A stretch of DNA of 63,973 bases, filler included, from Perkinsus chesapeaki ATCC PRA-425 (taxonomy: Eukaryota; Protista; Perkinsozoa), in the NCBI GenBank assembly GCA_013115145.1. It is 6 parts of 6 records of this genome, joined end to end, with 100 filler letters (N's around TTAATTAATTAA, not from the genome) between each part and the next. Parts side by side here need not be neighbours in the genome. Positions count along the whole stretch, not along the records: positions 1 to 4,941 come from JAAPAO010001210.1; positions 5,042 to 7,746 come from JAAPAO010001534.1; positions 7,847 to 33,002 come from JAAPAO010000532.1; positions 33,103 to 35,758 come from JAAPAO010001549.1; positions 35,859 to 62,721 come from JAAPAO010000501.1; 1 more part is not named here. One strand, given 5' to 3'. Every line of letters begins with the position of its first letter. The first letter of the stretch is position 1. This document shows, in pieces, positions 1 through 62,708 of this stretch. Both the position numbers and the translations under genes were made by a program. A model generated the notes under the pieces. That model was not told the DNA's origin. It was given only the letters and a program-made list of their open reading frames with translations, and did no database searches.

Positions 1-1733
1 AACTAAAGCGCTCTCCTGCTTCTCACAACGACCTCAAGACACTTTTGACCTCTGACGGTTATAAAACAATGAATGTGGATTTCAATAACGAGATGGTCAA
101 TCTGAAGAGAGGCAAATGCTAACTTCGTAATGTTCGCAGTTATAGCAGGGTTAACGGTTCACCAAAAGCGAATTTCTTTTGGGCACTTTTAGCGATGTGG
201 AGGAGGCAAATGCTAGCACCCTCAAAGAAGGTATTTAAGTCATGGAGTCACTCGAATGACCCCCTTTTTTCTACGAATCGCGGCGAGTCGTGTTTTTATA
301 GTAAATAATCTATCCTAGATTTAAGCAACATGACAACGTTATTAAAAAAGAAAGTTGGCAATGGCGATGTGTTACATATAGGTCTCAGAGCTCAGCTTTG
401 AAAGCTCGGCGCAAGGTGCATTGCCGATGCCCACCCCAGCGGCATGCGGCATCGGCGAAAAGAAAACGCACTTGACAGTTGCGCATCATAGTGCATGTGT
501 GTAACTAGTGGTTCAGGTGCACTCGTGCGACGGGCCTTGATGGGTTCGTTAGGTTCGGTATTAGGATGCAGTTTTGCTGCCGATGAATGCAAAGTATGGA
601 AAATATCAGACTTGCAGGCAAGCTCATCTATGATAAATGAACCCGAAAGCTTTGTTGAAGATATATGGGACCACTGGGTTAGGAAGTTAGCTAAGAGGCT
701 ATTACACAATCATGATATTCTCATCGCATTGTGAGAAGCGCTCAACTCGAACAAGCGTAAAGTTTATATGCTGTCAGTTAACCATTAATCGTTAATATAT
801 GGCTTTGGTGCTCATGGACATAGCTGGCTGGTATAACCGGCCTTTCCGTTCTTCCTTGTAGCGAGTTGCTTCCCCTAGCCCAAGCTTCTTGCTATTCGGA
901 GTGCAGCTTATGCTATACGCAATTCTACTGTATATTACTGTACTAACTGTCTACTTTATATTAACACCGACCTACGGTAGCATCACGCTGTGTAACTCGC
1001 TTTTTACTGAAAGCTTTTCAGTAAAAACCGTAGAAAACCGAGGTTCTTTTCCCGGGGTTCGTAGCACGTAAGTTAGACATTCTAAGAATTACACCCATAA
1101 ATGAGCCAAGTTTAAGTGCACATGTGAATGGCCGCGTGTAGGGCCTACAGTGTAGGCTGACTATATGAAATCAATAAAGCAGGCTCCGATGTAGCAACCT
1201 TTTCAACAGAGTATTACATAAGTAGCTGGTGATTATTTCTATGCTACACAAAGTAGTGTTTGAAAGTTGGGAAACCAATCTCATATTGTAATAGCGGCGT
1301 TGTCACGTTGCTCAACCAACGATATCCACCATAAAAACACGACTTCACGGTAATATATACGAAAAAATGGGTCATTTTAGTGACTTAAACACCATCTCTT
1401 TAGGCTTCTAGTACGAGGCTACTACACATAGCTACTGATGAACCGTTAACCCTGGCATGAGTTAGACCATGGTTAAAATGCAGTCGTACTATATAACTGC
1501 GAACAATAACAAAAGTGAAGGCAGATAGGCAGACGGCATTACACTTACTTATCAACCAGTACGTATCTGCTTATCAGACTATGATATTATAATGCAGGCT
1601 ATATTTGTCTGTTCAATCAAGTAGACAAAAAATACAAATATTTCAACCAACTAGTCTAGAAGACCAGCGACTCGACTTGATATCAAAGATAAGCTCGGAA
1701 TCACGATAAAGGTTTTAAACGATTCCGGCGACA

Positions 1734-2177
1734 TCAGCATTTGCCTTTCTTCAGACTGACAATCTCGCTATAAAATTCCACTCGTATGACGCTATCGTCG
1801 TCATTCGGGAAAAATGTCCTGAATTCGTTCTGAATGGTAGAAGAGGACTTCAGCTGGCAACTATCATAGACATGCTCCCTATAGTCTCCAAGATCCTTCT
1901 CGCTGAAAGGCTCGACGGCAAATGGATAGTGTGGAACAAGCCAATCATAATCCAACTCAGGTGAACAAACCCGCAGACCTGTGCATTGAACCGTTAGCTC
2001 GACTTGCATCAATTTCCTGGTTGAACTATAATTGAAGACGACCTCTATGCACTGCTGCTTCCCATTGGTGTATCCCATATAAGTGCCGGTTTGACATTTT
2101 GTAGACCACATCATGGATAGCTGAACTACCACGCCCATAACCATCTTGTACTTGTTGAAAATTGTCTTGCGAGTCAT
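1734..2177 (-). CDS. Small single-exon secreted-type protein (147 aa) ending in Cys; lineage-specific family
   Basis: ATG-started ORF with a hydrophobic N-terminal segment (MVMGVVVQLSMMWSTKC) followed by GTYMG; beta-rich composition; ends ...IVSLKKGKC. Architecture resembles ORFs 21472-21915 and 49258-49650. Confidence 0.65.
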   Translation of the reverse strand: MTRKTIFNKYKMVMGVVVQLSMMWSTKCQTGTYMGYTNGKQQCIEVVFNYSSTRKLMQVELTVQCTGLRVCSPELDYDWLVPHYPFAVEPFSEKDLGDYREHVYDSCQLKSSSTIQNEFRTFFPNDDDSVIRVEFYSEIVSLKKGKC

Positions 2178-2748
2178 CAGAGATGAGTGACGAAAGCTGC
2201 GCCACGGAACGTAACGAAAGACGAAGAGAATAAGAAAGTTTCTCAGAGATACCTATCCGTACTTGGCCTTCAAATGCTTGCGTTCCACAGAAGCGCACGC
2301 GTGCATTGTTCAGGTGGCGCTAAGTCCGCCGCTGTGGTTCTGTCGACTCTGAATGTTTTAACGCAGGATAGCTTATGTAGCATAAGCTCTAGTAGAGCCG
2401 CTCTACGTATTATAATAACAAATGACTACATTTCATTGCGGGGCGAACAAGGAAGGGAGTCAATAGAATACTGTATAACTTCGGAGTGTAGCAAATCTGA
2501 CCTACGACACGGAGCGACTCCATTGCAGTTCATGGCGGCGATCGTTATGATTCATAAGTTATGAATGATGATTGAGTCAATCAGATTGACCATTGGTGAA
2601 GATGCACGATTGATAACTCTCCCACTTCTATCGAGCTCAATGGTGATGTGCCATATCATTGGCAATGATTCATTGCCACGCTTGCACAAGTCCACCGGCA
2701 GTGTTAAGAACGCTGTGTTATACCGAGTTCCCATAAGTGAACATACAC

Positions 2749-2779
2749 TCAGGTTCTATCCCTGGGTGGATGTTTTTTT
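2749..2779 (+). pseudogene. tRNA-like 3' fragment (T-arm + oligo-T)
   Basis: TCAGG TTCTATC CCTGG forms a fully paired 5-bp stem around a 7-nt T-loop-like sequence (one change from TTCGATC), then GTGGATG and T7. No 5' half seen. Confidence 0.35.
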
Positions 2780-3056
2780 CTGTATTCACTTAGCTGATAC
2801 AATTGACGCTAGTAGTTGAGCAACTCAATTTGAGTTGAGTTTTGACGCGAGTAGTAGTCTCCAAATTATTATGAAACAAGTACTTGCAGTTCCATATTTT
2901 ATAAGTTGTGCCACCAATGAGTAGCAAAGATGTAACCTCCCCTAAGGGAGTCATGGCACACCAGCCCTGCGTGAGCTCCCGAGTGGTCGGAGCAAGGTGC
3001 ATGGCTCAGCCATCATGGCTGCCGATATGATCCTTTTTGGCTTAATAACATCCGCT

Positions 3057-3078
3057 CGCTTCGGCGAAGCGGCTTCGC
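3057..3078. repeat. 22-nt zig-zag scar (putative hAT excision footprint; inferred TSD CGCTTCGC)
   Basis: C GCTTCG G CGAAGC G GCTTCG C, a perfect match to A-U-h'-U'-a'-U-H. Confidence 0.75.
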
Positions 3079-4074
3079 AGCCGTTTCAAGTAAACGCATC
3101 ATCGTATTGATACTTACCAACCCAGACAAAGAAACAGTATCCCGCCCCGTCAGAAGTAGGTATTGGCTAAACCCTGTTCAGTACCCAAGTATTATCGGAT
3201 TTCACGATCATTGAAGTCATATTTATCAAAACACGGCTCCGAAATACATGATGGAACGGGACAGCTCTCGGCTACAAAATATTTATCTTGCTATGATACA
3301 AGGATACATCCATCGAGTCTAAACAGTTGAGTGAGCTCAGCTCAGCAGTTAGTCTTCAATGACAACTCGTTTTTCCCTTAATAGTTGCAGTTGTCCGTCT
3401 TCAGTCCGTGCGGCAGTTAATCGATCTCCTCTCGCCACCTGCCCGCTAAACCTGTCCAGAGAATCATGGGATAAAAAACGTGACAGTTTACTCGGGGATC
3501 TCAATCCATCCCAGTTGTGAGTAACCCTTAAGCCAGAAAGTATCCTCCCAGATTGTCGGCCGAAATGCAGCTTGCCGCCCAGCAGGAATCTGAAGGCCGA
3601 ACAGACAATATTAATGAGTACCGAATCCGTAATGCAGATTGAGCGGCTCAATTTGAGCCGTTCCAGGAAAGGATAGCCTCACACTGCGGCCGGGATTCAG
3701 AGTGACTCGGGAGTTTCTGTATGAGGTAAGTCCATGTCTCACCTCCCGTTTGCCTTCGGATTCTTTCCCGGCACCTCCGATCGGTCGTACACAAACGACG
3801 TCAGTAGTTCGGTAAAGGTAGAATTTCAAAGTGGAATTAGTATCGTTCGTGATAACGATGGGGTGATATTTTCGAGCAACTTGTATCTGACACCACTAGC
3901 TGCGAATTACTCAACGTCACTTCCACGTCTTCAGTAAAAGAGGGTCAAGAAGAGGATAATGCGCCCAAGCTGTTGAGTGTTGCGCCAAACCTTCTAAATC
4001 TAAATTTTACGGCAACGCACGACCTTAAATGGACGTGCCGTGAGAGAGTATGAAGTCCGGCTTGGGCCTCCTCT

Positions 4075-4096
4075 GCAGAGGCCCTCTGCCAGAGGG
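4075..4096. repeat. 22-nt zig-zag scar (inferred TSD GCAGAGGG)
   Basis: G CAGAGG C CCTCTG C CAGAGG G, perfect. Confidence 0.75.
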
Positions 4097-4308
4097 TACA
4101 CTCGACCCGGGTCGTCACTTCATTCGAATATATCGGTCGAATTCGTTAGGGGTTCATCCAGCCTCCTCCAGCTGCCGGAAATCGGTCCTTATATGGAAAC
4201 ATAACATGCCCCAACGGTAATGACGATTATTTAATGTACTCCTCATCTGGTTTGCATTCCTCACAGGACCAGTGACGCTGGTTGAATATGGCTCAAAGAC
4301 AGCCTTAC

Positions 4309-4412
4309 TCGGGCAAGTTCATCACACTTCTGCTTGAGTTCTGCTGCTTGGTCTTGGGAGCCATTAACCAGATAGTGCCCAGCAAGCCCAAGGGCTCCAA
4401 GTGCTATCCCAC
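4309..4412 (-). CDS. Probable internal exon of an unidentified multi-exon gene
   Basis: Bounded by CTTCAG| and |GTAAGG; open frame GIALGALGLAGHYLVNGSQDQAAELKQKCDELAR. Other exons not resolved. Confidence 0.3.
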
Positions 4413-4941
4413 CTGAAGCACGAACATATCCTGAAGGCCTCGGCTCGAACTAGGCACGTCGTTGGTAGTAATAGGGAAATGAAATGCCCTCAGGAGGATT
4501 GTATTTGATGGATGCGCATAGTACATTAGGAAAGGGAAGGTTTCTATTGCGGAAATTCCTATTATAATTTGCTTAGAGTGAGGCTGCTCATAGAAAAGCC
4601 ATAAGCGGTAAGTCCTACTATCCAATTGAGATACCAAGTGAGATATATCCATGATTGATACATCACACGTTTTGACGTATCAATCATACGTATATGGTTG
4701 ATACATCGTTGATTAGGAACCTTCTATCATACGCTTCCATAGCATATAATACCCTAAAAAAGTTTGTTGTCATTGAATGACGTACAGTGCTTCCCTAAGG
4801 AAGGGCGATTCCCTGGTCATAAAATCCCATCGAACACGGGAGTGCGGGAGGAATACTCAAACCCGAACCCCGAACACACTCCAAAAGTTGAGCGGGAAGA
4901 GGTTTCGGTTTGGGTATCCATGTCAAAGCAGCAAGTGACCC

Positions 4942-5041
4942 NNNNNNNNNNNNNNNNNNNNNNNNNNNNNNNNNNNNNNNNNNNNTTAATTAATTAANNN
5001 NNNNNNNNNNNNNNNNNNNNNNNNNNNNNNNNNNNNNNNNN
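4942..5041. other. Artificial contig-joining spacer
   Basis: 44 N + TTAATTAATTAA (stops in all six frames) + 44 N. Confidence 0.97.
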
Positions 5042-5579
5042 TTAGAGGGTAAGTCGCCGATGGTGGTACCACTCCCTAAAAGCTATAGCAAGAGCGATGG
5101 TCTCTTCTACAAAGATTGCCCCCTGATTATTACCGTACCTGGGCCATTTGCTTGTCGACATCTCTCCCTAGAAGAGAACCGCATGCTCAATGAAAGATTT
5201 GTATGGATTTCTCTCAATAATCCGATACCCTTGTCGCGGAGGGTAGATCTACCAGCTTGCGGCACTTGTTTCGGGAGATTTATATTATCTTACACTCAAT
5301 AATCATTTTTTACTAGCTATTAATCGATTAGTTTAGCGGCGCGTAGCTCATGATAATCTTTTTGTCTTTCTCATGAACCATTATTGTTGTGTTGATATAT
5401 TTGTCGTACATTGGCCATCTCAGAGATTTCCCGATCCAATGCCATCGTCAAAGGCTGTCCTTAGCGAACCGCGCCGGAATGGAAATGCAGGCGAACGCAA
5501 AAGTAACACCAGGAAGTCTCGTGTCGCATGCAAGACGTCATCGTCTTCCCCCTGACCCCCTGGCCAATGTTGAACATAC

Positions 5580-7295
5580 ATGATAGAAACATTACATTCT
5601 TCACATGTTTTGCAACATTGGTCAGGGGGTAAGGGGGGAGAATCCGGTGAGTCATCTATTATAATTTTAACTGGTGTCTTGTACAAATTGTTTGATTCTG
5701 ATGAGAGCTGTCGATTGCGGCTCGTTCTGCCATCTTCAAACCGCTCGCCTGTTTGTAAGCAAGTGGCGTGGTACTTCCAGTGCAGTTCTGGTCATGTTAA
5801 CCTTGAAGACACTATTCGCCGTTTACGGCGTCATTTCTGGTGGCCGAGGTTGCGCAGAGATACAACGGTTATTTATTCTGGATGTTTACATTGTCAGTTA
5901 ACCAAGCAACCTCAATTGTCGAAGTCTGTAGGTTCACACCTTTGCCCTACTGAGATATTCAGTACTGTGGGTGTAGACCTATTTGGTCCTCTGAACGAAA
6001 GCAAAGGAGGGTTTAGATGGATATTGACATGTGTTGATCTGTTGAGTCGGTATACTGTTCTGATCCCTTTAGCCACTATAACTGCTGCTGTAGTATCTGC
6101 TGCAATAGAGCGAAATATTATCTTGACCTTCCGTGCGCCAGAGTGCATTGTTTCAGACCAAGGAGCACAATTTGTGCGATCTGTTCTACTTGATGGTCTA
6201 TGCCTCTTCTATAAGATTAAACATGTGAGTTTACCCCTCAGACATCCAGCAAGTGGAGGGTTTTACGAAAGGCAGAATCGCACACTAGGCTCTACACTTA
6301 GATCACTACTCTCTGAGCACAAAGGTCTAGATTGGTATGATGTATTAGCTCTTGGTCAGCTTCGTATTAATACTACAGTACACCCTGATTTGGGAATCTC
6401 TCCCCATGAAGTTGTGTATGGTATACCTCACTCATTCCCTCTTGTGTCATTCCTCTGTCCGTCTGATGATCTCTCCGAGAAAGATATTGAAGAATTTGTA
6501 TGCTTTCAAAATCGTTACAGGAGAGATGCGGTTCTTGATGTCTATGCAGCTTCGAAGAAGAAACGAAGCCGTCAGCTACGTGCTTGGATTGATGAATGGA
6601 CTCGATCTAGAGCCAAATATCAAAAATGGGATGCTAAGTCAACATCAACGACCTCCTCTGAGCCCTTGTTGGATGTAGGCTGTAGAGTGCTGGTCCTAAA
6701 GTCTCCAAGTCATAAGCTAGATGGTAAATGGTCTCATGGTGTTATTAAAAAACATGTTGGTCGAGCTTGTTATGAAATACAGCTGGATGACTCTCAACCA
6801 ACTCAAATATACCATAAAGACCATGTCAAGCGATTTGTGCCCGCGGATCCAGATATTACTACTATTCAAGGCAGTCATTATTTCTCTTCAAAAAGGTCAA
6901 GGACGTTTGATGATGCTATTTACGATCCTCAACCGAAAAAGTTGAAATCTGATGTGGAACCTTTAGGTTCTCGAGGTTTGCATCCTTTTGATATGCACAC
7001 CTTAGTCGGTTGGAGGTCCCCTGGTTCTATTCCAAGAATTGGCTTAGTCCTAGGCAGAGATGTCAATAATCAGGTCATTATTCATGAGCATCGGATTTCT
7101 GATGATGCTGCTGTCCCACTATGGCTGGACGATGATGGTGTTGTTAAGGCAGGAGGCATTCCCTCAACTAAGCCAGTCATAGTTGCTGTGGAGCCTAAAC
7201 TACTTGTTAGGCTGACTACAACAGATGGTCTAAATTTCACCCCTCGAGCCAAGAAGAAGCTGACTGAGATGGGACTTCCATCTGAGGAAGGATGA
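5580..7295 (+). mobile_element. Ty3/gypsy LTR-retrotransposon pol, integrase portion with a long C-terminal extension
   Basis: Zinc-binding GH...FWWPRL...CLHC; catalytic VGVDLFGP, IVSDQGAQF and GGFYERQN (D-D-36-E); SH3/GPY-like KLDGKWSHGVI..YEIQL. ORF intact over 571 aa. Confidence 0.92.
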
Positions 7296-7497
7296 TGTTA
7301 GTTTTGTGTCTGACTTAGTTTATTTGTTGATATGCTTGTGCGCCCTTGTAGTTGTACGCATGCGCATAGCTAAGTCGGTGCAAATGGCTCCCTGTGGGGT
7401 TAAGCTCTGCTTTCATTTATCTCTAACTTGAGTTACACCAGTGCGACTCCTCTTCCCCTCTCACTACTAGTCCCTTAACTGCTTATCAAACCCAACA
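7284..7497 (+). repeat. Polypurine tract and probable 3' LTR
   Basis: GAGGAAGGA (7284-7292) overlaps the pol stop and is followed by TGTTAG at 7296. A possible ...CCCAACA end at 7497 gives TGTT/AACA termini. No second LTR is available to confirm the end. Confidence 0.5.
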
Positions 7498-7746
7498 GTG
7501 ATCCTTGTGCCGCTAACTTTCTCGGACGGGTTTTTATACACTGCCCGCAAGCTGTAACCAGCCTCGCTACCATGCGCCGCATTGAAGGCTAGTAGTAGTT
7601 CTTGACCAACTCGTTGTAGGTAGCGTTTACACCATGGTGACTTTTGCCATGAATCGACTTGATGATAAGGCGCTGAAGCGCATGTTCTCTAGGTGGGACC
7701 ACATACTGTGAGTGTACCATACCGTTAGTGTCTTGTCGACACTTGC

Positions 7747-7846
7747 NNNNNNNNNNNNNNNNNNNNNNNNNNNNNNNNNNNNNNNNNNNNTTAATTAATT
7801 AANNNNNNNNNNNNNNNNNNNNNNNNNNNNNNNNNNNNNNNNNNNN
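7747..7846. other. Artificial contig-joining spacer
   Basis: 44 N + TTAATTAATTAA + 44 N. Confidence 0.97.
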
Positions 7847-7973
7847 TTTTAACTGTGTATAGAGCGCACTACAAATTTCGTTTCGGTCTAAGGTCAGCAA
7901 AGGAGGAAATAATAGAGTACATAATACGGCCGCCGTGTTCTACGGCTACCAGACCACCTCGTCCAGGTCACCC

Positions 7974-7995
7974 CTAGCAAGTTGCTAGTAGCAAC
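7974..7995. repeat. 22-nt zig-zag scar (inferred TSD CTAGCAAC)
   Basis: C TAGCAA G TTGCTA G TAGCAA C, perfect. Confidence 0.75.
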
Positions 7996-8049
7996 TCCTG
8001 AAGCGAAAATAGTTATGCTATATGGGAAGTAATATTTTATGAAATACTG

Positions 8050-8126
8050 TGAATCCTGGCTAAGCCAGGATTCATCTGGCAGGCCATTGGCCTCAGGCCA
8101 AGCCTTGGCCTGAGGCCAATGGCCTC
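8050..8126. repeat. Cluster of odd-centred palindromes (arms 12 and 22 bp) containing a zig-zag scar at 8105-8126
   Basis: TGAATCCTGGCT A AGCCAGGATTCA (8050-8074); AGGCCATTGGCCTCAGGCCAAG C CTTGGCCTGAGGCCAATGGCCT (8081-8125); T TGGCCT G AGGCCA A TGGCCT C (8105-8126). Confidence 0.85.
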
Positions 8127-8133
8127 GTCCTAG

Positions 8134-9117
8134 ATGAGTCGAGGACTCAGAGTTATGTACTCAGGTCCGCATGATTTTGCCATCGATACCAAAAAGACAA
8201 CTCTAGAATACTGGAAACCGTTCGATCACTCAGAACCATTCGTAAGCTGCATAGTCGCTTTCTGTGAGAGCCCGTGCTCTAGCGCCACAATCGAACGAAT
8301 GTTTTCTCGGGCACGATTGGTTTCCAGGTGAGTCGCTAAATATTGTGTAAGTTACATCATGTAACTTACACGCACTGCGTGTCATTCTGGTACATGCTTT
8401 GCTTCTTCTCGGGTGTAATATGAGACCTGATACAATTTTTAAGAAAATGGCAATTGCGTGGGATTCGAAACAAAGAATGCTTCATAAGGAGCCTGCTCGG
8501 AAAGTAAGCCGAAGTACCCCCCTCTTTCCTGGTTTCCAATCGTTATCTTTGTCCTGCCTCAGGTGCATCAAGACCCCGTTGTTCTGGATACAGACAGTGG
8601 TGAAGATCAGCCTTCTCGTGCTTAATCGGTGGAGCGGGAGACCCGAGGACCCCACCTTCTCGACACCATTGCCTCCCTGCGAGCTCTCGAGACAAGCAAA
8701 TCCACGGCTCAGCGAGCCAGAGCAAAAAGCAAGCGACAAACGCTGGGCAGTCGGCCAGATGAAAAGACGGTGAAAAAATCATCTAAGAAGCCTTCTAAGC
8801 ACCGGCATAAAAGGCCCTCGACCCTGAGAGGCATAACTGATGATTTTCTGAGAAGTGGTGGTGATATGGGTATAGCATGTCTTCACATGCCACCTGGCGA
8901 AGCACTCTCCTATGAGTGTATCATATATGTAGAGGCTAACTCGGCTGAAGGAGGTGCTGCCAATGGCAAAAGACAGCGATCTAGCAAAGGGAGTTCATCA
9001 GTTCAATATATCCTTTTCTATCCAGAGTCACAAGAGCGAAGCGATGCCAGTTATGATCTTGATGCCATTCGCGGGAAGTTCTGCACTGGGGAACTCGACT
9101 TTCCCGACGAAGAGTAG
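8134..9117 (+). pseudogene. 3' part of an intron-containing hAT-transposase-derived gene (hAT C-terminal dimerisation domain + basic tail)
   Basis: TTLEYWK...ESPCSSATIERMFSRAR matches the hAT W..PxSSAxxERxFS motif. After a GTGAGT donor (8328) it resumes as CNMRPDTIFKKMAIAWDSK; that acceptor reads CGG, not CAG. The downstream frames are K/R-rich. Confidence 0.7.
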
Positions 9118-9284
9118 CAGTGTTACCCTTCTTGCTACTATAGGACAGCGTCTTGACTCTCATGTCTGATTCAATAATGAACTGCACACTCAATACTGTT
9201 TCAACATACTCTTCGTAGGAACAATTTTGTTTGCTAACGTTCGTGCGTTTGACGTATCTCTGACAGTTGACTTCAGCCTTCCAT

Positions 9285-11466
9285 ATGACAAAAACTCCAT
9301 CAGCCTCCAGCAAGCCCACTAAGGAAGCTCCGGCTGACTTCGACTTTGAAGCTCATTTTGTTAACGGGCCAGGCGTCGATCCGAAAGATAAATCGGCCAC
9401 CAGAGTAGTAACATGTGTTCACTGTCGTAAAAGTCGCCGATGAAATGCGACTCGAGACAAAGCGCACATCTGGTTTGATCATCGAGAGATTTTAACTGGC
9501 CTGGGAGTTGTACCTGTCAAGAATAGCACGCCCGGGCGTCGGAGAAGCCTTAGCCGGAAAAGTACTAGCCCACGGCGCTCCCCGAACTCCTTCAAGGATA
9601 TGCCGATGAGTAACCCTCTACGTGGTTCTTTAGCTGCCGGCAAACGTTCTGTGGAGCGAAGCACTAACAAGAAATCAAAACAGAAAACGAGCCCATGTCT
9701 CGTTGATTTATCCACAGCTGGAACTCCGGCGCCGAGTCGACATTCGAGCTCTCCCATTCGCGGGTCGAAGGCTTCTACTTCCTCAGTATGGTCCCCTGGA
9801 CTAACAAAGTCTCAGATATCTAAATTCTGGCTCATGCTCGTGGAAGGGTGCTTTGTCAACGATTTTCCAGTAGATCGGTTCCTCAAGGACGAGAACATAA
9901 CGCTGGCGCTAGATAGGTTGCGTCCTGGTTATGCAAAGTCATCTGCGAATATCTGCTTGGATGTGAGTCATATGGAGCAAAGTATAGTACAAGAAGCACT
10001 GGCTCGTGCAGTTCATACGATATCGAGTAAAGTGTCACGGCAACCACTTGCAGTGCTGGCCATACAAGTACACGAATCGGAGGCTCGGATGGGTCCGTGC
10101 GCGATCACCGCGTGTGCTTGTATATGGCAAGGATCGAAAGACAGAGCGGGAGAGGCTTGTACAGTACCACTGCGTGGGACTATGCTACCTGAGCACCTAT
10201 CCACGATGTCTACAGCGTCTTCTGGTCCGCGATTGGTACACTCCTCCGATATGGGTAAGCTTATATTCGAATTCGTTGAAAAAGACTGCACCGATCTGCT
10301 CAAAGAATGTGATACCCATTTTGTAAAGACTACATGAGACTTCTTCTATCAGGTGGAGCCACGGTCGTGGGAGTTGCTACTGACAACCAGATTCTCGCGG
10401 ATGCCTTTGCCAGCAGATCCCCATCCCAGCTAATCGTCATGTCTTTCTCTGATACTCTCAAGGGTGCTCTTGAGGCTTGCTTACGCGCTGACGATGCCTT
10501 CAAGCCTACTATAGAGGTTGTAAAAGAACTTCTAGAACTCTTGGAGGCATACAAAGCCGATACACGGTGTCCGGCTCTTCCATCACTGGCAGCAAACTGG
10601 ACTTCAAAACTGGAGTTTGTAATCGAAAACTGGAGGTCGATCAAAAACTACTTATCCGATATGGGAGAGCAGGAAAATTGGAGGAGGTACGCTGCGCACT
10701 GTACACAAGAAATTTCAACTCGACTTTTAGTATGAAAGCAGGCCTCAGAATGATTCACTCGAATGTATCACAAGCCTTCCTGCCCCCCGAAGCACAACAG
10801 GGCTTCCAGACAGTTGTTGAAAAACTGCGCTCCGTAGAAACTCTTATACAGAAGCTGAACGATCCCAGTACCAGTTTGTTTCGAGGGATTTGCCTGATTG
10901 GCGACTTCCTGGAAAACGAATTGGTTCTACCAGAGATCGAAAGAGCGTAAGAAAGTTACTGCGTACCTATTACTGGACCCCACCTCTTTAGGAGTATTTT
11001 TATATTGAACTACTTTGGTTGGTTAAGGAGGTTTGATCCGCCGGCTTATCAGGATACGGATGAGTGGATTCGCGAGAATGCCAGCGGAATTGCAACGGAT
11101 ATCCAGAGATTCAACGATCGTAGGGTGGCGGATGGCATTCCGGCTGTCCCGCTTGATGCGGGCGCATCAACACTAGTCGACTACTTCAATCGCGACGGTA
11201 AGTAGGAAACTTAGATTAATCCCTGAGGTCACTAGTAATGACTCACTACGACTCCCAGACTGGGAGTCCCAGTCAACTAGATCGATCTTGTATTGTTATC
11301 TTGATTAGGTGAGCATGCTGATATTAGCGTTCCTCTGATGAAGAAAATGACAGCTTTTCAATACTGGAGACAGAAGCATAGCAGCGACGCGTTCGCCAAA
11401 TATATTTTCTGGTCCACAATATGCCCGTGCAATGTTGATGAAGCGAGGCATATTTTCCGAGGGTAA
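9285..11466 (+). pseudogene. BED-finger hAT-transposase-derived gene, disrupted and apparently catalytically dead
   Basis: ATG 9285 runs in frame into ORF 9600-10337 through one TGA (9441) in BED finger CVHC..RR*NATR..AH...H. Then come LDRLRPGYAKSS (hAT DNA-binding region), VGVATDN (second catalytic Asp) and a final exon MTAFQYWRQ..ICPCNVDEARHIF homologous to the dimerisation domain of the upstream copy. There are frameshift or intron junctions near 10330 and 10700. Confidence 0.7.
11252..11273. repeat. 22-nt zig-zag scar (inferred TSD CTCCCAGT)
   Basis: C TCCCAG A CTGGGA G TCCCAG T, perfect. Confidence 0.75.
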
Positions 11467-11700
11467 CGAAGCAGATGGAAATTCAATGAATTTCCTGAAT
11501 TCAAATCACCTTCAGGTCAGTGGATTTATTAAACTCTTTCCTCAGTCCCGTCACACCTGAAAAAACATTTTGCCGAGGCCTCATTAGATGGAAGCTTGAT
11601 AGTAAATGACTTATTTAAAATAAGGTCTTTCGACTTCAACAGTTGGGTGTTGTGTTCTTTGCATCAGAAGCTAGTCCACATTGCATTAGGCAGGTACACA

Positions 11701-11838
11701 AGATTTCACGAAATTTCGTGAAATTTCGTGAAAGTTCACTTGAAATTTCAACGATTTCATCGGCCTCATGAAATTTCTGAAATTTCATGAAATTTCAGAA
11801 GTGAAATTTCACGTGAAATTTCAAAGCGGCACACCCTA
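11701..11838. mobile_element. Probable DNA-transposon end: array of TGAAATTTCA-type subterminal repeats ending in a hAT-like TIR
   Basis: About ten variants of (T)GAAATTTC(A) in both orientations, ending GCGGCACACCCTA. Its reverse complement TAGGGTGTGCC resembles the TAGGG/CAGGG termini of hAT elements. No matching opposite end found. Confidence 0.5.
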
Positions 11839-47799: not shown

Positions 47800-47860
47800 T
47801 AAAATAATGTACAACTAGGAACACAGGAGATACTTCGAACGAGTAATATGTTCATAGATA

Positions 47861-49650: not shown

Positions 49651-51044
49651 TAATGAGTTATGCTATCACACTCTTCTTGACATTAGAAAACAGTCTTACT
49701 AGGGTATCGCGATGACGTGCATTTGCGTTACACGCACCTCACACATCGCTCCTAGAATGACTCATTTGCTTAGGCTTTTGTTGCTTTGTTCTGTGATCCC
49801 TTATTCTTGTATATTGCTCGAATGGCATCTCATATGTCTTCGTGCCTTAGTTGCATCATTTCATTCTTGAACATTGAGTAACCCACTCGGTCACTCCTTG
49901 ACATTGTGTTCAGACCTCACTGTCTGGCTGCCAGCTCTGAAACCAGACTCTGGCACCACGCGTGGCTCATGTGTAGCGAGTGAGGCCCAGTAAAGATCAC
50001 AAGTCATTCTGGTTGCATGTTATTGAGTTCGTCAATGTTGACGATGAATCAAGCCCCATCTGGTGAATTAGCAGTGCTAATGTCTGTGATAGTATATACA
50101 GTATTCGTAGCGTTCTCTCCTAGAACTCTTCTGCTATTTTAAAACAAACCATTCCAAATTTGAGGCACCAATTTCACCTCATCAAACTCGAGCCAATAAC
50201 ACATCCAATCGAATGATTGGCAGCTTGTGTGTGGAAGCCGTAAGCCTCTTCAACTCACGTACAACGAAGTAAATTTAGACCGAATCTGGAAAGTTCTCAG
50301 TCGGGGCTAAATAATAACTATAACTAAATAAATTCTTTAGCATAGATTTCAAGGTGGTTACTATCATCAACCATATTCCCAATCGAGTGGACCTCGGACA
50401 TCCCACCTATCACTTACAATGGTATATGTATTGGCCTACTCCACTTACCGGTAAGCTGCTGCAAGTAGATAGGTTTTGTAAAAAGATCTTTAAGAGTTTC
50501 CTGGGCATCACCGTTCTCAGAGTGCCCCTCTCTTTTGAGCCAGGGTATTACCCGACCGACCAGGCAGTGCGGCTGACTGGCCACTGATATTTCCTCTGAG
50601 AAGGACTTGAATGATTTTGAATCAAAATCATTTGAGTCCTTCGAGTTCGTCGACAAAAATTTTCGATCGGCTCCACACCGGAGCCTCTCAAATCGCCAAG
50701 AAGTATTTTTATCGTTATGTCCACGGGGAACTCTACAAAGGTGGCTGCTGATCAGCCAAGGCAGCTCTCCTTACTAGACAACACAACAGACATCCTTTTG
50801 AAACTTCTGCTATGAACAAGTTCGATCAATGTCGAACGGTAACACCGTTCAACATGAAGAGTAAGGGAGTACTCTGTCGAATAAGAGATACCAGAAGGTG
50901 TGATAAGATAGCACGCCCCTCCTGTAAGCCTTTGGGCTAAATAGGAGGGAAGCTAACAGCATTCGGTGCCACCGTAAGATGTAGAAGATACAATTTCCGC
51001 GATAGGGAAAGATTATTTGATTCCAGTATATCCTTGAGCTCGCA

Positions 51045-54000
51045 TTAGACACTCTCCTCAGGTGAGCAACTAGCCGAGCTCGAGCACGCACTGGAGGTAT
51101 CGGATTCGACACTGCCCGTATCTGCGTCGGGTTTCGATGCCTGTCTGAACAGGCTCATCTGGTAACGGATGCCAAAGTTAACAAATACACCTGACAAACA
51201 GCGCACGAGTTTCGCAACGTCACACTCAAAAGACGCAAAATCCACGCTAAAATTCCCGACCGTGGAAATTTTTGGCCTCACGGTCTCTGAACCATTCAAG
51301 GAAGACAGGTATGTCTCGCCGAGGCAATAAACCGTGCAACTTCGTCGCTCGAAACAAGACGGAAGCGATGTCGATTTTCAACCTTACTGTACGCAAGCGT
51401 CGTGGTGCTAGAATTATGCACGGCCAGGCCGTGACGGCCGCCCAAGCATTACACACATCAGTAGTACAGCTTCAAATGCAATAAAGTAAAATCCAAGTAT
51501 TGGAACGCCAAGTGCGAAACGTCCCAAGAGAGCTTACATGCGATGGCACCCACACCAGAAAGAGCTACGCTTAAATAGAATGGGTAAGCGACGCCCAGAT
51601 CGTATAGGTTTCCAGCAACCAAGGGGCCAACGACGCCACCTGCAAAAATAAAGGGATGCAACCGGACATGCAAGAGCAACTCACCAATGTTAGAGGCGCC
51701 CATCACACATGAGTTAATCAGCCCACGTTGCTTGGGAGGAGACAGAATTGCCGTGAAGAACGCTTGGCCAGCAAAGTAGAGCCCGACTGAAGCAGATAAG
51801 GAATCACCATGGTGAATCGCAAGCGACTAATCTGAACCGGACCGGTTCAACCGGTTATTAACCGGTCAAAAAAAGACTATTGTACGTTACGTACAGTACG
51901 TACTGTGAGCGACCTGCTAAGGCCCCCTTACTGAGTCCAAACCCTCTCTTACTTCCAGCCTGCAATCCCATTCCAAGGAAGATAACTCCAACAAGGCTAT
52001 TGATGAAGGGCACTACTACGATGATCATAGCCAAGGTAAGCCCACAGGTACCCAGGAGGGCGGGGGCGATCCATTCTGAAGAGACCAGATGAGACTAGAG
52101 ACAATTGACAATTTCCGCGTCACGATACGGATACGTTCGTGGAGATATACACTACCCATTCCGGAAGATCCCTTCTAAAAAAGGCAACATTAACCCCTTT
52201 CCAGTTGCGGCCAAAGAGTTTGTGTAAATACAGTACGCGACATCTTGAGATGCGCGGTCTGGACGGGGAAAATATCGATAAGTATGTCGAATTCCGAGCT
52301 AATTCCTTTTCTGTCCGAATTCTCCGCATTCGATTATCCATAAATCGAGCTTGCCCGCTCTAACTCGCGGGGCACTAAGTTGATAGCTCTACGAACGAAG
52401 TACAAGGTCGGACGGATCATAGAACACAGCCCATACTGGATGAGCTATACTGTATTATCTAGAGAAATTGGACGAATCCTCCGATTCAGCAACGATACAG
52501 TAGTTGTGAAGACTTCACAGTGAAGTGGTCGTCTATCTTATTGCATTGTTCAGGAGAGACGACACTTAACGAGGAGATCCTTGATGCATGAAGAGCTTTG
52601 CACGAGCATATAGGTATTTGACTCGGCGCAGGTGATGCATACGAGACACGTTTAGTCCACTCAATTACCAAAAGAACAACCTGCTCACAATGGTGGAATT
52701 CTTTGGCGTCGCTGAGATGGGAACAATGCCCGTGGCGCTGAGCTGTTTGAACTTCCCTAGGCAACCAACGTCGCTGAATTCGATTCCGAAGTCAGTTTTG
52801 ACTCCAGAAATCATTCCATGGAAATACGAAATTTTCAAAAATTGCGCGCTTTTTGCATTTCCAAATCGAGTAGTGTAAAAACTCCACTTACTAGTAAGTT
52901 GCAAGTAGATAAGGTTGGTAAATATTGTACCAACCGCTTGGATTCCCTGGGCACCGCCATTCTCGGATGGATTCAAATGGTATTGATCAGCTCCGACCAG
53001 CCCAAATACCGTGGCCCAGTTGATACCGAGATACCTGGAAAACAAGGCTCGTAGGTATAATCTCCTGATCTTGGTATACATCTTCGTGTAAATTCATACG
53101 GAGACAGATATATGGGTACAATATTACTTTATTATTATCCTATTATTATCCCTAATATTAATAATTTATTATACCTATTATTAATCCAATTATTATCCCT
53201 ATTGTTATCCTATTATTATCCTACTACTGTACTTTTATTGTATTCCTAACATATTACTTGTACTTTTGTTATAAAAGTTTTATGAACATACTAATTACTA
53301 ATACAGTGCGAACCAAACCATCATGATCCAAGGTCATGATATTACAACACTTATTTTTAACTGTTACCATCATGCTATCTTCCAAGTTTCATGTTCTAAG
53401 TCGTAAAATTAAAAAAGCTATGCCAAAAAGACGAATTTGCATAACGGTTTGGTTCGCACTGTAGTATCAATCATTAAATCATTCAAGTCACCGAAAAGCT
53501 ATAAAACTTCGCTCCGCTCACATTTCTACATGACCTGTACTATATCCGCTCCCCCACTTACTGTGCACAAAATGACGCCAATCCCAGGAAGAATATAGTC
53601 GGCCAAAGGTATTTATTTCTCGGTGGGTCTTTCGCTTCAGGATGAGCAAACATATTAATTGGCACACCGTTCTCGTCCTTCTCCAACGACTCACGGAGGA
53701 ATAGAAGTTCCAATATGAGCAGGATAGCAGCCACAACTCCCATAAAGTAGAACGGGAAAGATAGGGATACCGACGCCAAGGCACCACCTGATAAATCAAG
53801 AACTGGATGCCAGGTAATTGTGAAGATCTACAAGACCTCCATTTAACGACACCGACTGGATCGGCTACAAATGCATAAGCAGTCGAAGCCCGAAGAGCCT
53901 CTCGATTTCTATGGATTCAATTCGACTCCCTCGATGAAAATGGGCCCATCGGAGCGATTCGTCACGCGCCAGGAAATTCTACAAAAACTCAAATACTCCC

Positions 54001-56284
54001 ACGAATCCTTGCGTTAGAAGATAATATTCCATCTCCCTTCATCACTTCCCGATGAATCGGGTTTCGAAGATCGCACACAGTCTACGAAGCACTTCTTAAT
54101 GATGAGCCTTTGTGATAGGACTCTCATGTCTTTCATTTCATAATCGTTACCACAAGCTCTAGTGGAGAGTTTTCTCCTGCTGTATTTTCCTAATTTCTTC
54201 CATATCATCCAGTCCCATTACTTTCCATTTACGGCCCTTATATCCACTCTCCGAATGCTATATGAACAGCATTCAAAGTATCACTACTTCTACTGGTACA
54301 CATTATCCCATATATTGATCATTATATAGCAGGGCCACAACTAGGTTGATTCCCCATGCGTGGACCCTGAAGTTCGGGCATCGACTAGGGCCCATCCGAT
54401 TCACACTGTTGACACTGGCCGGGGACCCTTCCGGCAGGGCGGGGCCCTAAAAATGTTTTCAAAGGTTTCTCCCTAGTTGGGCCTAGTTGTATAGTTCCCT
54501 CATTATTCATATTAGCATATATCATTTCATATATATTCATTATTATATTATATTACTAATCATTTAACACCCACACTGTTATTACCAATCGCGGGACCCA
54601 CAGCTTGTCCAACCACCACGAAGAGTCCCATTAGGACTCCGTAGAGCTGCATATCCACAGGACGGCTACTATCGGTCAAGTAGGACACAATAGCAGGACG
54701 AGTACCTAATATCAATAACATCACAGGTTCGATCCCCGGGACCTCCATTTTACCAGCGGCGACACCAGCCATTGCTCGGAAACCTGTAAAACTGGCTATA
54801 TCCCAGGCGTTGGCCATGAGGAACTGGGCGATCGTGTAAATAGTCATTGCCATGAGAAGAACTGGACGCCGACCGAGCCTGAGAATTAATACTGATGCCA
54901 TAAAACCGCTGTTTAAAGGCCACTAATCAAACAGGACATAAAAGCGCCACTAATCAAAGAGGACATCAAAGCGCCACTAATCAAACAGGACATAACAGCG
55001 CCACTAATCAAAGAGGACATCAAAGCGCCACTAATCAAAGAGAACATCAAAGCGCCACTAATCAAACAGGACATAAAAGCGCCACTAATCAAACAGGACA
55101 TAAAAGCGCCACTAATCAAACAGGACATAAAAGCGCCACTAATCAAACANNNNNNNNNNNNNNNNNNNNNNNNNNNNNNNNNNNNNNNNNNNNNNNNNNN
55201 NNNNNNNNNNNNNNNNNNNNNNNNNNNNNNNNNNNNNNNNNNNNNNNCAGGACATAAAAGCGCCACTAATCAAAGAGGACATCAAGGCGCCACTAATCAA
55301 ACAGGACATAAAAGCGCCACTAATCAAAGAGGACATCAAGGCGCCACTAATGAGATACTACGGAGAATATTTCTGAATGATTTAGCATGCAACAAATATC
55401 CAATTATGCAACGAACTAGATAACGCCCGGAAGCAGATTTGCGTCCTCCTCCTCCCATCCTCCCATGGAACCCTCAATACTACCTATCACTCAGTGGGCC
55501 AGTGACCAAGGAGGCCACCAGTGTGCCGACCGAATAGCCAACCATAAGGATAGACGCTGCTGTGCCTTGATTCATATCGGGCGCTAGATCATCTATATAC
55601 CTGAGAATGGCGAAAAACTTGGAAAATTAAAATAGAAGGATCCTTAACGTAGCACCGACTTGGACGTTCGCCCCCACATACAAGCCTCTCCGACGCTTTT
55701 AAGGAGCCCCTGATAATATTATTCGTTATTATACATCTAATTCATAGGATATATTTCGAGACAGCCGGATTTACCCTGGCGGGCTAGTCCCAATAGTGTT
55801 GAAAATGGCAAGCTGTTCGAGTTACTCGAACTCGTATTTTCTTGGGGATGTGAATATAAAGTAAACGAACACGTATGAGTTCATAGACATAACAAATGTA
55901 TCACAATAAACCACTATAAATAGTATAGGAGTAAAAGTGATGATAATAGATATATTATATATCTATTATCATCATATTTACCATAATACCATACCTATAT
56001 ATCATATATACCGTAAAACTTATAACCACTCCACCGCCCTTTAGATGCTGTATGATAAAAGCCACATTATTATCTTACCATGGTGTCACAGGGGCAAGTA
56101 GAGTGCTGCCAAGCCACTCAACAAAGATACCAACGAATATGATAACCAAATCCAGAACCCTTCTAGGATTGTATTTGGTCCTGTAGACCAGACGCTTTGG
56201 GTAACTTAGAGCATAGTACTCCTCAGAAGTGAGCGGACCTTCTCTGACTTTTTCAGGAAGTGGTAGGAAAGATTTACAAGGCAT
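51045..56284 (-). CDS. MFS transporter paralog 4 (DHA1/Tet-like), complete, 10 exons
   Basis: Starts MPCKSFLPLP; GPLSDR|LGRRP; VGQAVGPAIG; WIAPALLGTCG; RGLINSCVMGASNIG|GVVGPLVAG; last exon ends ...CSPEESV*. Confidence 0.9.
51834..51855. repeat. 22-nt zig-zag scar (inferred TSD GAACCGGT) in intron 7 of MFS paralog 4
   Basis: G AACCGG A CCGGTT C AACCGG T, perfect, followed by a further odd-centred inversion ACCGGTTA T TAACCGGT. Confidence 0.75.
51881..51902. repeat. 22-nt zig-zag scar (inferred TSD TGTACGTA) in the same intron
   Basis: T GTACGT T ACGTAC A GTACGT A, perfect. Confidence 0.7.
52229..52339 (+). repeat. Dispersed repeat, copy 3 of 3 (intron 6 of MFS paralog 4)
   Basis: TACAGTACGCGACATCTTGAGATGCG...AATATCGATAAG...CGATTATCC. 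Confidence 0.7.
53304..53461. mobile_element. Tc1/mariner-type MITE (158 bp) in intron 5 of MFS paralog 4
   Basis: Perfect 16-bp TIRs CAGTGCGAACCAAACC / GGTTTGGTTCGCACTG, flanked by TA on both sides; non-coding interior. Confidence 0.88.
54723..54751 (+). pseudogene. tRNA-Ala-like 3' fragment + oligo-T, antisense within the 48-nt intron 3 of MFS paralog 4
   Basis: ACAGG TTCGATC CCCGG GACCTCC A TTTT is in exact tRNA register and homologous in position to 37356-37385. Confidence 0.68.
54915..55351. repeat. Minisatellite, 27-bp unit, in intron 2 of MFS paralog 4; spans an unresolved 98-N gap (55150-55247)
   Basis: Unit AAAGCGCCACTAATCAAACAGGACATA with variants, on both sides of a linker-free N run. 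Confidence 0.95.
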
Positions 56285-60200: not shown

Positions 60201-60907
60201 TTATGCGCTGGATTTTGTCTAATATCATATGCTCGCCGCTCGGGATTAAGAGCAAAAAAATTTAGTGGAACTATCCTTCTCGGTAACACAAGTGTGTTTT
60301 ATATAGTAAGTTTACTATTAGTAGTATATTTATAAGTATAGTTTATTATCTTATAAGGTATAATATATATTATTAATGTCAAGTGTTAGCAAATCTTTGC
60401 TATCAAAAAATCTAATCCTGACAGGATTATCCTGTATACAATATTTATAATATTATATATAGTACGCACAATCCAGCGCAGTGAATCAAGTCACCTGATT
60501 CAAGTGTATCAAAAATGCAGTGAAAAAACGTTTTGAGAAAATGCAACATGTGAAGTATTATTTCGATACAACAATATTAGGAGAGTATCTCCACAAAATT
60601 TGATATCAATATGTGGTCTGGTTGAGAAGTTACGCCGGTGAGGGCAAACGCGTGCTTTAGACCGCGCGGACTGCATTCCGTACATGTCATGTTTAATGTG
60701 GGACGTGATATAGTGGAGTCATTATTATTTATAGAAATTGTGCGATTGTGTTTTTGCCTACTCCTGTTGTACTTCGTCATGTGTAGGCTTGCAAGCGAGG
60801 AAAGCTCGGCGCCGAGCGCGAAGCGAAGAAAAACAACCAAGGATGACAAGAAGTCCTCAACGGCTAAAGTTAAAAAAGAAAAGAAGAAGAGCAAAAAAAG
60901 CAAATGA
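57230..60907 (+). CDS. Conserved Lys-rich eukaryotic protein of unknown function, 8 exons (start uncertain)
   Basis: Phase-consistent GT-AG exons 57384-57437, 57481-57520, 58394-58426, 58992-59031, 59076-59179, 59483-59578 and 60787-60907 give ..DLPGRGDPHCGQKITTRILQGDLCVPCEEEGETKDARRHFKEGQKHVTPPQGDSTRGFYESLLEEKPGSVMAIRYCVEHGIFAGEKHRKLLARYNELKASG..ALDRVAEKYGLASEESS..KKEKKKSKKSK*. The GQK..PP.GD..R.FYE.L..E.P.S.MA core is one I recall from uncharacterised plant and protist proteins; not verified. Confidence 0.75.
58276..58308 (+). pseudogene. tRNA 3'-half fragment in an intron of the Lys-rich gene
   Basis: AGGTC CTCGG TTCGATC CCGGG ACCTGTC A TTT: variable loop, fully paired T-stem, canonical T-loop, 7-nt acceptor strand and discriminator. 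No 5' half upstream. Confidence 0.6.
59192..59447. repeat. Purine-rich minisatellite, 38-bp unit x~6.7, in an intron of the Lys-rich gene
   Basis: Unit GGGATAATAGGGAATATATAGGAGAGCTAGGGATAGGA; starts recur every 38 nt (59192, 59230, 59268...). Confidence 0.95.
60414..60435. repeat. 22-nt zig-zag scar (inferred TSD AATCCTGT) in the last intron of the Lys-rich gene
   Basis: A ATCCTG A CAGGAT T ATCCTG T, perfect. Confidence 0.75.
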
Positions 60908-60997
60908 CAATGGAAATGTTAAGTGCCTGTGATTGAGTTGTGTTTGATTGCTGAGGTTATTCTGACACTTCTAGCTATAAGTTGAGTACATTCCATT

Positions 60998-62708
60998 ATG
61001 TCTAACGAGAGCGTTCATGGACCTCCAGACGCCACTGCGATGGCTGTTACCGTAGTACTGGGTTTGGTTTTCTGGGACATCGGGGAGACAGAAATTGTGT
61101 GAAAAAAGTCATATAAGCTTACCGTACGAAATACGAACTTGAAGCTTCTGTAAAGTGCCGTCTGTCGTATGTTATATTTGTGCATACTCGCGTAGACCTT
61201 TCCATGTCTAGTCGATGCCAACCTGAGTACATCTTTTTGAACACGGAAGTTTGCCTATTAGGGAAGTTCTTCTTTATATATAGCGTCTTGTATACTGCAA
61301 TAGGTTTAAAGCTTTGCTAGGGAGGTGTTTGGAAGCTGGACCTTTATTACGGCCTGATAAGTCGGTGCAGTGGTGTGCTTCAGTTCGCCAAGACCATTGG
61401 TCGCATTGCGGACTTCGCTGTTGATCTGGCTGAGCAGCTTCATAAGGATCTTGGACTGGAGTATAAGCCAGCACCACATGGGAAGAAGACTAAGAAATCC
61501 GTAAGTGGCCATTTATCGTCTTCAGGCTCTATAAAATGCGTTGATTGCGAAATGTGCCATTCGGGATTCGTGGGAACGGTAGAGCCGTTGCGATGCTCTC
61601 GCAAAGGTGTTATTATGAATCGGACTTCCGCGGACTTATTCCACACTGGAAGGACTTATCACGCGTCATGCAATGAACGGGATAACTCGCGCAGCAATTT
61701 CCAGCGTGCACCTTGCGGACTACGTATCATCTGAGAGAATCACACTTCTTTGAACTCATCGATGATGCAAGGTACTAGTTAAATCTTGATGGTTAAGACA
61801 TTGAGGGCTCTTATATTGGTTCCTCCTCAAAGCCTATCGTATCAAAAAACTTGTCCGTCAAATGTCTTGTGTGATTGTGCAGGTCCGGGATCCTAATATG
61901 CCTAAGAAGCCGAAGACTGCATTCTTCCTTTACTGTGATACAGAGAGAGAAAAAGCAAAAGAACGGGTGGGTGGAGCGTGATCGAAAGGTGCCTGGTTCA
62001 ATTCCCGGGTGGGGTGTTTTAGGGCGAAAATCCACCGAGTGCTAAGGATATGGCTGAGACATGGAAGAACGCTGATGACAATGTAAAGGTGGAATTTGTG
62101 GCAGGATTTTTATTGGCTACCAGGTGCGTGCGCAGTACTCTAATGAGCAGGCTAAACTGAAAGAACAATACGACAAGGTAAGCGGAGTTATGAGCCGCTG
62201 TGGATGGGTCGTTAGAGAGGGTCTATTGGGGGCCGACGAAGAGACCCAAGAGAATTTAGAATATTGTTAGATATGGACTTTCTCGAAAAGTGCACGAAAA
62301 ATCGATAGTGGATCTTAGATATCGGAGAACATCAAAGTGCAGCCTCAAACCTGTATCAGCTATTCACTTTGGAAACACTAAAATTCCGGTGAGGATCTCA
62401 CCGTGAGGTCTTGTCACGGGACCGATGGGGGCGCTCTCCCATAGGGGGCAGACTAGAGGGTTACACTAGTAGCCGCTATAGTGAATGACCTGCGTTAGTT
62501 CGGCCGTGGAAAAGCATTGCTTGGTCAGGATATGAGCGCCTATAATGCAGGGAAGCACCATAGTCAGAGCGGCAGTCCGCCACCAAAGAGAGAGGTAAAT
62601 CGAACGGTAGGTTTTATTGGAAGTGAATTTCTGCAGAGTCCCGACACTTCGAGTGGGTCGGAGGATGAGGAGGAGAACGCCCAAGTGCCTAAGAAACTGA
62701 AGCGATAG
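60998..62708 (+). CDS. HMG-box protein (single box, acidic/basic tail); 5' exon uncertain
   Basis: Spliced product ..PHGKKTKKS|VRDPNMPKKPKTAFFLYCDTEREKAKER|GENPPSAKDMAETWKNADDN|VRAQYSNEQAKLKEQYDK|DMSAYNAGK..SEDEEENAQVPKKLKR* matches the HMG DPNxPKRPxSAFFLF..W..Y..Y consensus. ATG 60998 is tentative. Confidence 0.88.
61969..62020 (+). pseudogene. tRNA-Phe-like fragment making up most of a 56-nt HMG intron (61967-62022)
   Basis: GGGTGGAGCGT--GATCGAAAGGTGCCTGGTTCAATTCCCGGG versus the eukaryotic tRNA-Phe GGGAGAGCGTTAGACTGAAGATCTAAAGGTCCCTGGTTCGATCCCGGG (recalled from memory). The anticodon segment is deleted and it ends in TTTT|AG. Confidence 0.55.

Follow-up and report, generated by a model that had tools for sequence, protein, structure and literature searches.

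The stretch of DNA analysed here (the window; 63,973 nt) comes from Perkinsus chesapeaki ATCC PRA-425 and consists of six contigs joined end to end, with one further N gap besides the joins. It carries a tandem array of transporter genes, broken retroelements and the remnant of a transposase-like gene and, scattered amongst these, many instances of a 22-nt zig-zag motif. Each 22-mer follows from an 8-mer, T, in the order T1–7, the reverse complement of T, or rc(T), and T2–8, such that all 22 bases are derivable from the 8-mer, and neither a foreign base nor any element sequence is included. We call these 22-mers scars; they are likely to be the footprints of an excised hAT-type DNA transposon.

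A Dense 22-nt Motif Defined by Geometry

The 14 constraints imposed by this geometry were scored over the window; sites with zero, one and two mismatches numbered 21, 26 and 17, respectively. The corresponding means over 60 local Markov shuffles were 0, 0.08 and 0.57, with maxima of 0, 2 and 3, so that about one of the two-mismatch sites may be a chance hit. Sites with three (31 versus 7.9 in the shuffles) and four mismatches (137 versus 67) are also in excess.

The perfect 22-mers (no strand assigned) are located at 2569..2590, 2655..2676, 3057..3078, 3638..3659, 4075..4096, 7974..7995, 8105..8126, 11252..11273, 12080..12101, 17857..17878, 23046..23067, 24423..24444, 24541..24562, 34046..34067, 34442..34463, 35294..35315, 47259..47280, 51834..51855, 51881..51902, 52505..52526 and 60414..60435. 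Beside the scar at 11252 lies one of the one-mismatch scars (11228); the stretch is left out of the database gene model P0010.

The 26 one-mismatch sites (span 1136..62409) start at 1136, 2385, 2544, 3000, 8080 (a nested copy), 8351, 11228, 11603, 12210, 13894, 14031, 14811, 21363, 22209, 22444, 22605, 23337, 24014, 28434, 32095, 32375, 44102, 51419, 56354, 60485 and 62388; the 17 two-mismatch sites (span 386..53284) start at 386, 2231, 2700, 2815, 4261, 8344 (nested), 22905, 24986, 31026, 31750, 32140, 34881, 35066, 48074, 49182, 50060 and 53263. With the two nested calls (8080 and 8344) removed, 62 sites remain over 63,375 bases, i.e., approximately one per kb, and the bases they add amount to 1.4% of the window. 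They occur in four of the six contigs (14, 0, 29, 5, 14 and 0 scars, in window order).

A sequence-only reading of the window had listed 20 of these sites, all of which were recovered at the same coordinates and in the same form. Its count of 12 perfect instances was too low, its spacing of about 3 kb too wide and its figure of five out of six contigs one too many. Its statement that the cores have geometry but not sequence in common agrees with our data, as no two of the 62 inferred 8-mers are alike. The 22-mer is a real, dense and sequence-independent motif.

Unit Length, Offset and Palindromes

The centre of each scar is made up of three copies of a six-base unit U (T2–7), the middle one inverted (U′), separated by single-base spacers. 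A full scan for exact U-x-U′-y-U cores found 30 with U = 6, in 21 of which both spacers are complementary to the outer bases, against two with U = 4, one with U = 8 and none with U = 5, 7 or 9; the predicted peak at six is, therefore, present. In addition, we compared 27 geometries (unit lengths from 4 to 12; zero, one or two bases lost per side) with 40 shuffles. Only the unit of eight with one base lost per side was clearly in excess (21 versus 0). At this unit length, offsets of zero and two gave no perfect sites in the window, nor were units of 9 or 10 bp represented by any scar, at whatever offset. A unit of four, likewise with a one-base loss, exceeds the shuffles by a narrow margin (25 versus a mean of 16.2 and a maximum of 23), and we make no claim for it.

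Shorter products do not stand out. Ac-type 16-mer footprints (3 versus 1.55 expected) and tandem 8-mers (7 versus 3.0 expected) remain within the shuffle maximum, i.e., at chance level, while deletion footprints are uncountable without a reference. The short and varied hAT footprints typical of nonhomologous end joining (NHEJ) are thus not predominant here, and the dominance of one repair product, as originally proposed, is borne out by 21 perfect 22-mers against three short Ac-type footprints.

Amongst palindromes with arms of at least 7 nt, 101 have a one-base centre, while 4, 7, 12, 1 and 5 have spacers of 0, 2, 3, 4 and 5 bases, respectively. Seventy of the 101 lie in 22-mers. The remaining 31 include five pairs that imply an 8-bp unit and one pair that implies a 4-bp unit; the others are partnerless. 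In each of the five 8-bp pairs the arms are long and unequal, as expected from two hairpins that are opened separately. These long variants are located at 13836..13883 (centres 13843 and 13876; arms 30 and 4), 20456..20489 (centres 20463 and 20482; arms 7 and 9), 43425..43559 (centres 43432 and 43552; arms 8 and 25), 45726..45785 (centres 45733 and 45778; arms 18 and 9) and 55949..56010 (centres 55956 and 56003; arms 18, or 36 at 81%, and 7). The first is fully explained by 30 bases of left fold-back and four of right fold-back, overlapping by two bases. Unexplained bases in the other four number 17 (at 45726..45785), 21 and 86 in three pairs and two in one; the middle of 43425..43559 consists of short units, both direct and inverted. 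Several unpaired single-centre palindromes, such as the one centred at 51858 (arm 8) directly 3′ of the scar at 51834 (51834–51866), have no explanation in this model.

The sequence-only reading had also noted a variant in which a spacer equals the outer base itself instead of its complement. Six of the 14 spacer mismatches are of this kind, all of them G/C; judged by the substitutions that the arms show, this share has P ~0.05, and the variant is suggestive only. Site 8080 was dropped as a candidate for such a spacer flip: it is an inverted copy of the scar at 8105.

The inferred targets themselves are weakly and symmetrically biased. The 62 8-mers and their reverse complements differ from the background composition at each of the four half-positions (P = 0.0009, 0.036, 0.008 and 0.004, uncorrected for multiple tests), with preferences, in order, for G/C, A/T, pyrimidine and purine (S-W-Y-R); none of the six flanking positions deviates from background. 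Such a profile would fit a symmetric integrating enzyme.

Genomic Context and Decay of the Scars

A tandem array of at least four intron-rich major facilitator superfamily (MFS) transporter genes occupies 36254–56299 on the minus strand. Their exons match Perkinsus proteins (labelled P. chesapeaki, P. olseni and P. marinus), and for two exons the identity to a P. chesapeaki protein is 100%. At a second locus, the match is to a gene model from P. chesapeaki; two P. marinus relatives bear the automatic label “norA, putative”. The scars at 47259 and 52505 lie between MFS exon matches, and the gap between two such matches at 51818–51935 holds two scars (51834 and 51881). Overlap with MFS protein matches is absent altogether (0 of 64 sites); in the fifth contig, where 27% of start positions would give an overlap, none of the 14 scars falls within an MFS exon match (P ~0.013). 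No scar was found inside the five long open reading frames (ORFs) checked. The earlier statement that intact exons are avoided, therefore, holds where it can be tested. Two unrelated GC-rich loci (29 kb), taken as negative controls from a metagenome scan with an MFS protein (distant, 33% identity), had no site at up to two mismatches.

The scars decay in a graded manner, with 27 transitions and 16 transversions in the arms. Their order of formation is visible in one nest: the scar at 8105 has an inverted copy at 8080–8101, both within a palindrome centred at 8103 with 22-bp arms. The region 33103–35758 consists of broken retroelement pieces, an endonuclease (minus strand) and an integrase (plus strand), with five scars in 2.7 kb. 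The scar at 34046 is located in the overlap zone of two out-of-frame ORFs of this integrase, where the frame changes; the protein matches are too weak to place the break, and we do not count the frame change as proof of direction. A palindrome with 23-bp arms and a three-base centre occurs in the same contig at 34480–34528. Three more scars lie within a broken frame on the minus strand (2646–2888) whose Pfam match, to the PH-like domain of herpesvirus glycoprotein B, is weak and misses the cut-off (E 0.0019).

Empty and Scarred States in a Second Assembly

Two stretches of the window, with 39 sites, were compared with separately assembled contigs of one public sequencing run (X1; depth 48–84). 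X1 is possibly derived from the source sample, and the comparison is, therefore, a test of the assembly rather than of an independent strain. Among the X1 contigs listed, 30 of the 39 sites are bridged without any difference, which rules out an error of the assembler.

In a multi-copy region near 8900, the window carries a plain 8-mer (8911..8918; no strand assigned), while a homologous X1 copy has 14 extra bases after 8911. The insert is, letter for letter, the one predicted from the window 8-mer, and it creates an exact 22-mer. This pair is one of 13 indel rows listed in the X1 comparisons. An empty site of 8 bp, lacking 14 bases relative to the scar as the sequence-only reading had predicted, has, therefore, been seen once; no inverted repeat pre-exists at the empty site.

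Two larger X1 joints (8059–8104 and 14773–14840) each skip one scar together with other sequence. A 44-base segment (8060..8103; no strand assigned) with two single-centre palindromes (arms 12 and 22) is missing from another X1 copy, a difference in which an older repeat may be involved, or which may reflect a deletion in the other copy. The distant palindromes at 8051–8071 and 48880–48900 have a 12-base left arm and the sequence that follows it in common. Among the rows listed, no element was seen between two 8-mer copies in either stretch.

Transposon-Like Sequences in the Window

A multi-copy, broken transposase-like gene lies on the plus strand (9242–11460). With its subterminal repeats and, at 11838, a right end of the TAGGG type, it forms a candidate transposon (9242..11838). 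Before this end, between 11700 and 11830, GAAATTTC units are clustered in direct and inverted orientation; 107 bases of this cluster are missing in another X1 copy. A homology search with the remnant returned no relative other than itself, and a comparison with the sequences in PDB gave no useful match.

At 146–1454, perfect 16-bp terminal inverted repeats beginning with CAGGG bound a segment of 1309 bp that is multi-copy in X1; they are nested in a longer inverted pair (75–127/1729–1781; 81%). Further CAGGGTT-type ends at 15544, 29575 and 58536 had no partner within the window.

Other Features of the Window

A scar-free contig carries an open 573-aa ORF for a Ty3/Gypsy-type integrase (H2C2 and rve domains; 5574–7295). 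A duplicated region contains two peptidase S28 remnants (12229–12354 and, on the minus strand, 14409–14576); the segment 16237–16500 (minus strand) matches a dynein light chain. Tandem arrays (24, 27 and 38 bases) occur, along with a tract of G and C runs, at 48208–48543, 54878–55405, 59154–59495 and 13445–13510. A short repeat at 22743–22847 reaches a summed X1 depth of up to ~20,000, as compared to ~84 nearby, and has copies near 21212–21312 and 42428–42517; a second very deep repeat is located at ~4817–4941.

Origin of the Scars

We consider it likely that the scars arise by hAT-type excision that leaves two hairpin-capped flanks, which are opened and then annealed through the duplicated target. 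A hAT-type DNA transposon would enter, duplicating its 8-bp target T, and later leave. In line with the established chemistry of hAT elements, the transposase would cut one base into each flank and seal it into a hairpin, the tip of which is the complement of the element-adjacent base. The left hairpin would then read flank, T1–7, rc(T), and the right one, on the other strand, flank, rc(T2–8), T. We infer that the hairpins are not opened at the tip and ligated, which is what mostly happens in yeast and plants, but opened beyond the 8-mer, in the strand 3′ of the tip. The unfolded tails, of which the left one carries rc(T) and the right one T, could pair over eight bases, and trimming of flaps and filling of gaps would generate the 22-mer. 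The product is the same wherever beyond the 8-mer the hairpin is opened, which would explain the uniformity of the scars. Tails joining at other positions would give rise to the long-armed variants, of which five are seen, while opening on the opposite strand would place the base itself at the centre. As 14 is not a multiple of three, a scar shifts the reading frame and is likely purged from exons; scars would thereby accumulate in introns, spacers and dead repeats.

The chemistry has precedents (articles are cited here and below for the excerpts available from them). Duplications of hAT elements are mostly of 8 bp, with the hairpin opened by host enzymes (PMC5499845), and the footprints of Ac/Ds, which form via flank hairpins, are palindromic around the complement of the element-adjacent base (PMC5873905, PMC1978519). 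Both properties recur here: amongst units of 4 to 12, eight is the only one clearly in excess and is also implied in the five long variants, while the centres are complementary to the outer bases, as in Ac/Ds (PMC5873905), at the offset of one in all 21 perfect sites. In budding yeast, Ac/Ds arms reach up to 20 nt, and microhomology is found at 85–100% of joints in yeast and Arabidopsis (PMC5873905).

As to why a single route should dominate, the sequence-only reading had suggested weak or absent classical NHEJ. This does not sit well with the congener P. marinus, which has been scored 3/3 for Ku70, Ku80 and Lig4 (PMC6635534, Table S1), and loss of end-joining genes is, therefore, an unlikely cause of the uniform scars. 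The available excerpts of PMC11936186 and PMC8062965 hold nothing on Perkinsus end-joining genes or on such scars. A putative cause that we prefer is that a tip-opening nuclease of the Artemis/Pso2 kind is missing or slow, because pso2 loss in yeast raised the frequency of atypical Ds repair products (as cited in PMC5873905).

Several observations weigh against a hAT origin. No element flanked by an 8-bp duplication was found in the window, where the hits were at chance level or in satellites; the flanks of the sole perfect 16-bp inverted pair (146/1454) agree at one of eight positions. Among the X1 rows listed, none of the 39 scars has an occupied or a 14-base-shorter copy. The empty/scar pair lacks a direction, since slippage from one U copy to the other would remove exactly these 14 bases, and the palindromes in 8060..8103 imply a 4-bp rather than an 8-bp overlap, which is unexplained. 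The 9242–11460 remnant has no Pfam match, its structure model is poor (pLDDT 42) and a Foldseek search with that model found no match. Atlas evidence on the remnant is split, and all of it is below the tool's threshold, such that it serves as a lead only: its features point to P/THAP9-like transposases (0.84), while hAT clusters account for the majority of the ten structure rows (TM 0.32–0.40). Moreover, hAT footprints in the hosts tested are short and varied (PMC5873905, PMC1978519, PMC3499496). Support for the hAT proposal comes from the peak at U = 6, the empty site, the complementary centres and the dominant product.

In an alternative that we judge unlikely, no element was ever resident. 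A symmetric enzyme (a transposase engaged in abortive strand transfer, a domesticated transposase or another nuclease) would make an 8-base staggered break; the ends would be filled to one base short, sealed as hairpins and annealed in the same way. Sixty-two scars without a single TSD-flanked element (TSD, target-site duplication) in 63 kb, and the sight of empty and scarred states only, speak for it, and the symmetric target bias suits any symmetric cutter. However, it needs an additional, undocumented hairpin-sealing step, whereas hAT cleavage yields the tip directly; many scars per surviving cut-and-paste element would be expected anyway, and transposon-like ends and a transposase remnant are present in the window. 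At its most far-reaching, the idea is that a Perkinsus enzyme makes 8-base staggered, hairpin-capped breaks that heal with 14 added bases, tens of thousands of times per genome, and is a main engine of the growth of noncoding DNA, which we likewise regard as a long shot. The same hairpin-annealing route might instead serve another superfamily with 8-bp duplications (MULE, Merlin or P-like), which appears improbable. P elements leave element sequence behind and are not known to form a flank hairpin, which counts against the P-like option, even if the Atlas feature matches of the remnant provide a lead in that direction. Muta1, for its part, does leave flank hairpins, and MULEs duplicate 8–10 bp (PMC5499845); Merlin remnants (8–9 bp) are known from P. 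marinus, as are Dada elements (PMC8101967, PMC3706591). Yet the window is devoid of scars built on 9 or 10 bp, whatever the offset, and Muta1 excision was more than 90% precise in yeast (PMC5499845). The pattern is, therefore, not that of MULE footprints, with 8–10-bp units and mostly precise excision, although precise excisions would be invisible here.

Explanations without any staggered cut fare worse. In replication template switching, which we think very unlikely, the polymerase would move onto the other strand for eight bases and then back. Template switches do make inverted triplications from local sequence alone, in keeping with scars devoid of foreign bases, but their products are of variable length and are seeded by a pre-existing short inverted repeat. 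A spread of lengths would, therefore, be expected, and none is seen at units of 5–7 or 9–12; the empty site at 8911 has no such repeat, and the fixed loss of one base at both turns would go unexplained. That the scars are fold-back chimeras from library preparation or assembly is barely credible: X1 and the window possibly stem from one sample, but a separate assembly reproduces 30 of the 39 sites, and graded decay with a transition bias (27:16), exon avoidance and ordered nesting (the 8105 scar copied by the 8103 palindrome) are foreign to an artefact.

Relation to Known Systems and Significance

Hairpin-mediated excision of hAT-type elements, the origin we favour, resembles the footprints of Ac/Ds and TcBuster (PMC5873905, PMC1978519, PMC3499496) in its 8-bp unit, complement-centred palindromes, long arms and microhomology joints. 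In Candida albicans, Ac/Ds left 28 footprint types in 128 events, varied and mostly short, the longest arm being 3 nt, whereas in the window one 22-mer dominates whatever the sequence, fixed at about one per kb. Where mPing and Muta1 have left their donor sites (PMC4561436, PMC5499845), repair is likewise guided by the target duplication; there, however, direct copies pair and the empty site is restored, while here the inverted copies freed by hairpin unfolding would pair, adding 14 bases. A further parallel is V(D)J recombination. It involves no target duplication or one-base offset, adds only a few bases and is joined by classical NHEJ, which distinguishes it from the scars. The P nucleotides at its coding ends (named in PMC5499845, PMC1978519) nevertheless show that off-centre hairpin opening leads to palindromic additions.

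In the literature searched, which mostly excludes subscription papers (among them the classic Tam3, Ascot-1 and yeast Ds tables), where single instances may be in print, we found neither a description of a fixed 22-mer footprint that recurs genome-wide nor an account of such scars in Perkinsus. While the excision chemistry is known, the uniformity and density of the outcome are unusual and apparently unreported.

Excision usually leaves either no trace or marks so diverse that they can be recognised only against a reference. Each scar, by contrast, is self-describing: its target 8-mer can be read, and the three copies of U constitute an internal clock. If the density in this one window, which may be rich in repeats, is extrapolated to a genome of ~40 Mb, roughly 40,000 scars would be expected, and these would allow transposition to be dated and target choice and selection to be mapped. 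They would also serve as near-homoplasy-free markers for a shellfish parasite. Finally, the scars point to a repair route for hairpins that bypasses the opening of the tip, even though end-joining genes appear to be present in the genus, and such a route would bear on how gene editing breaks heal in the Perkinsus lineage.

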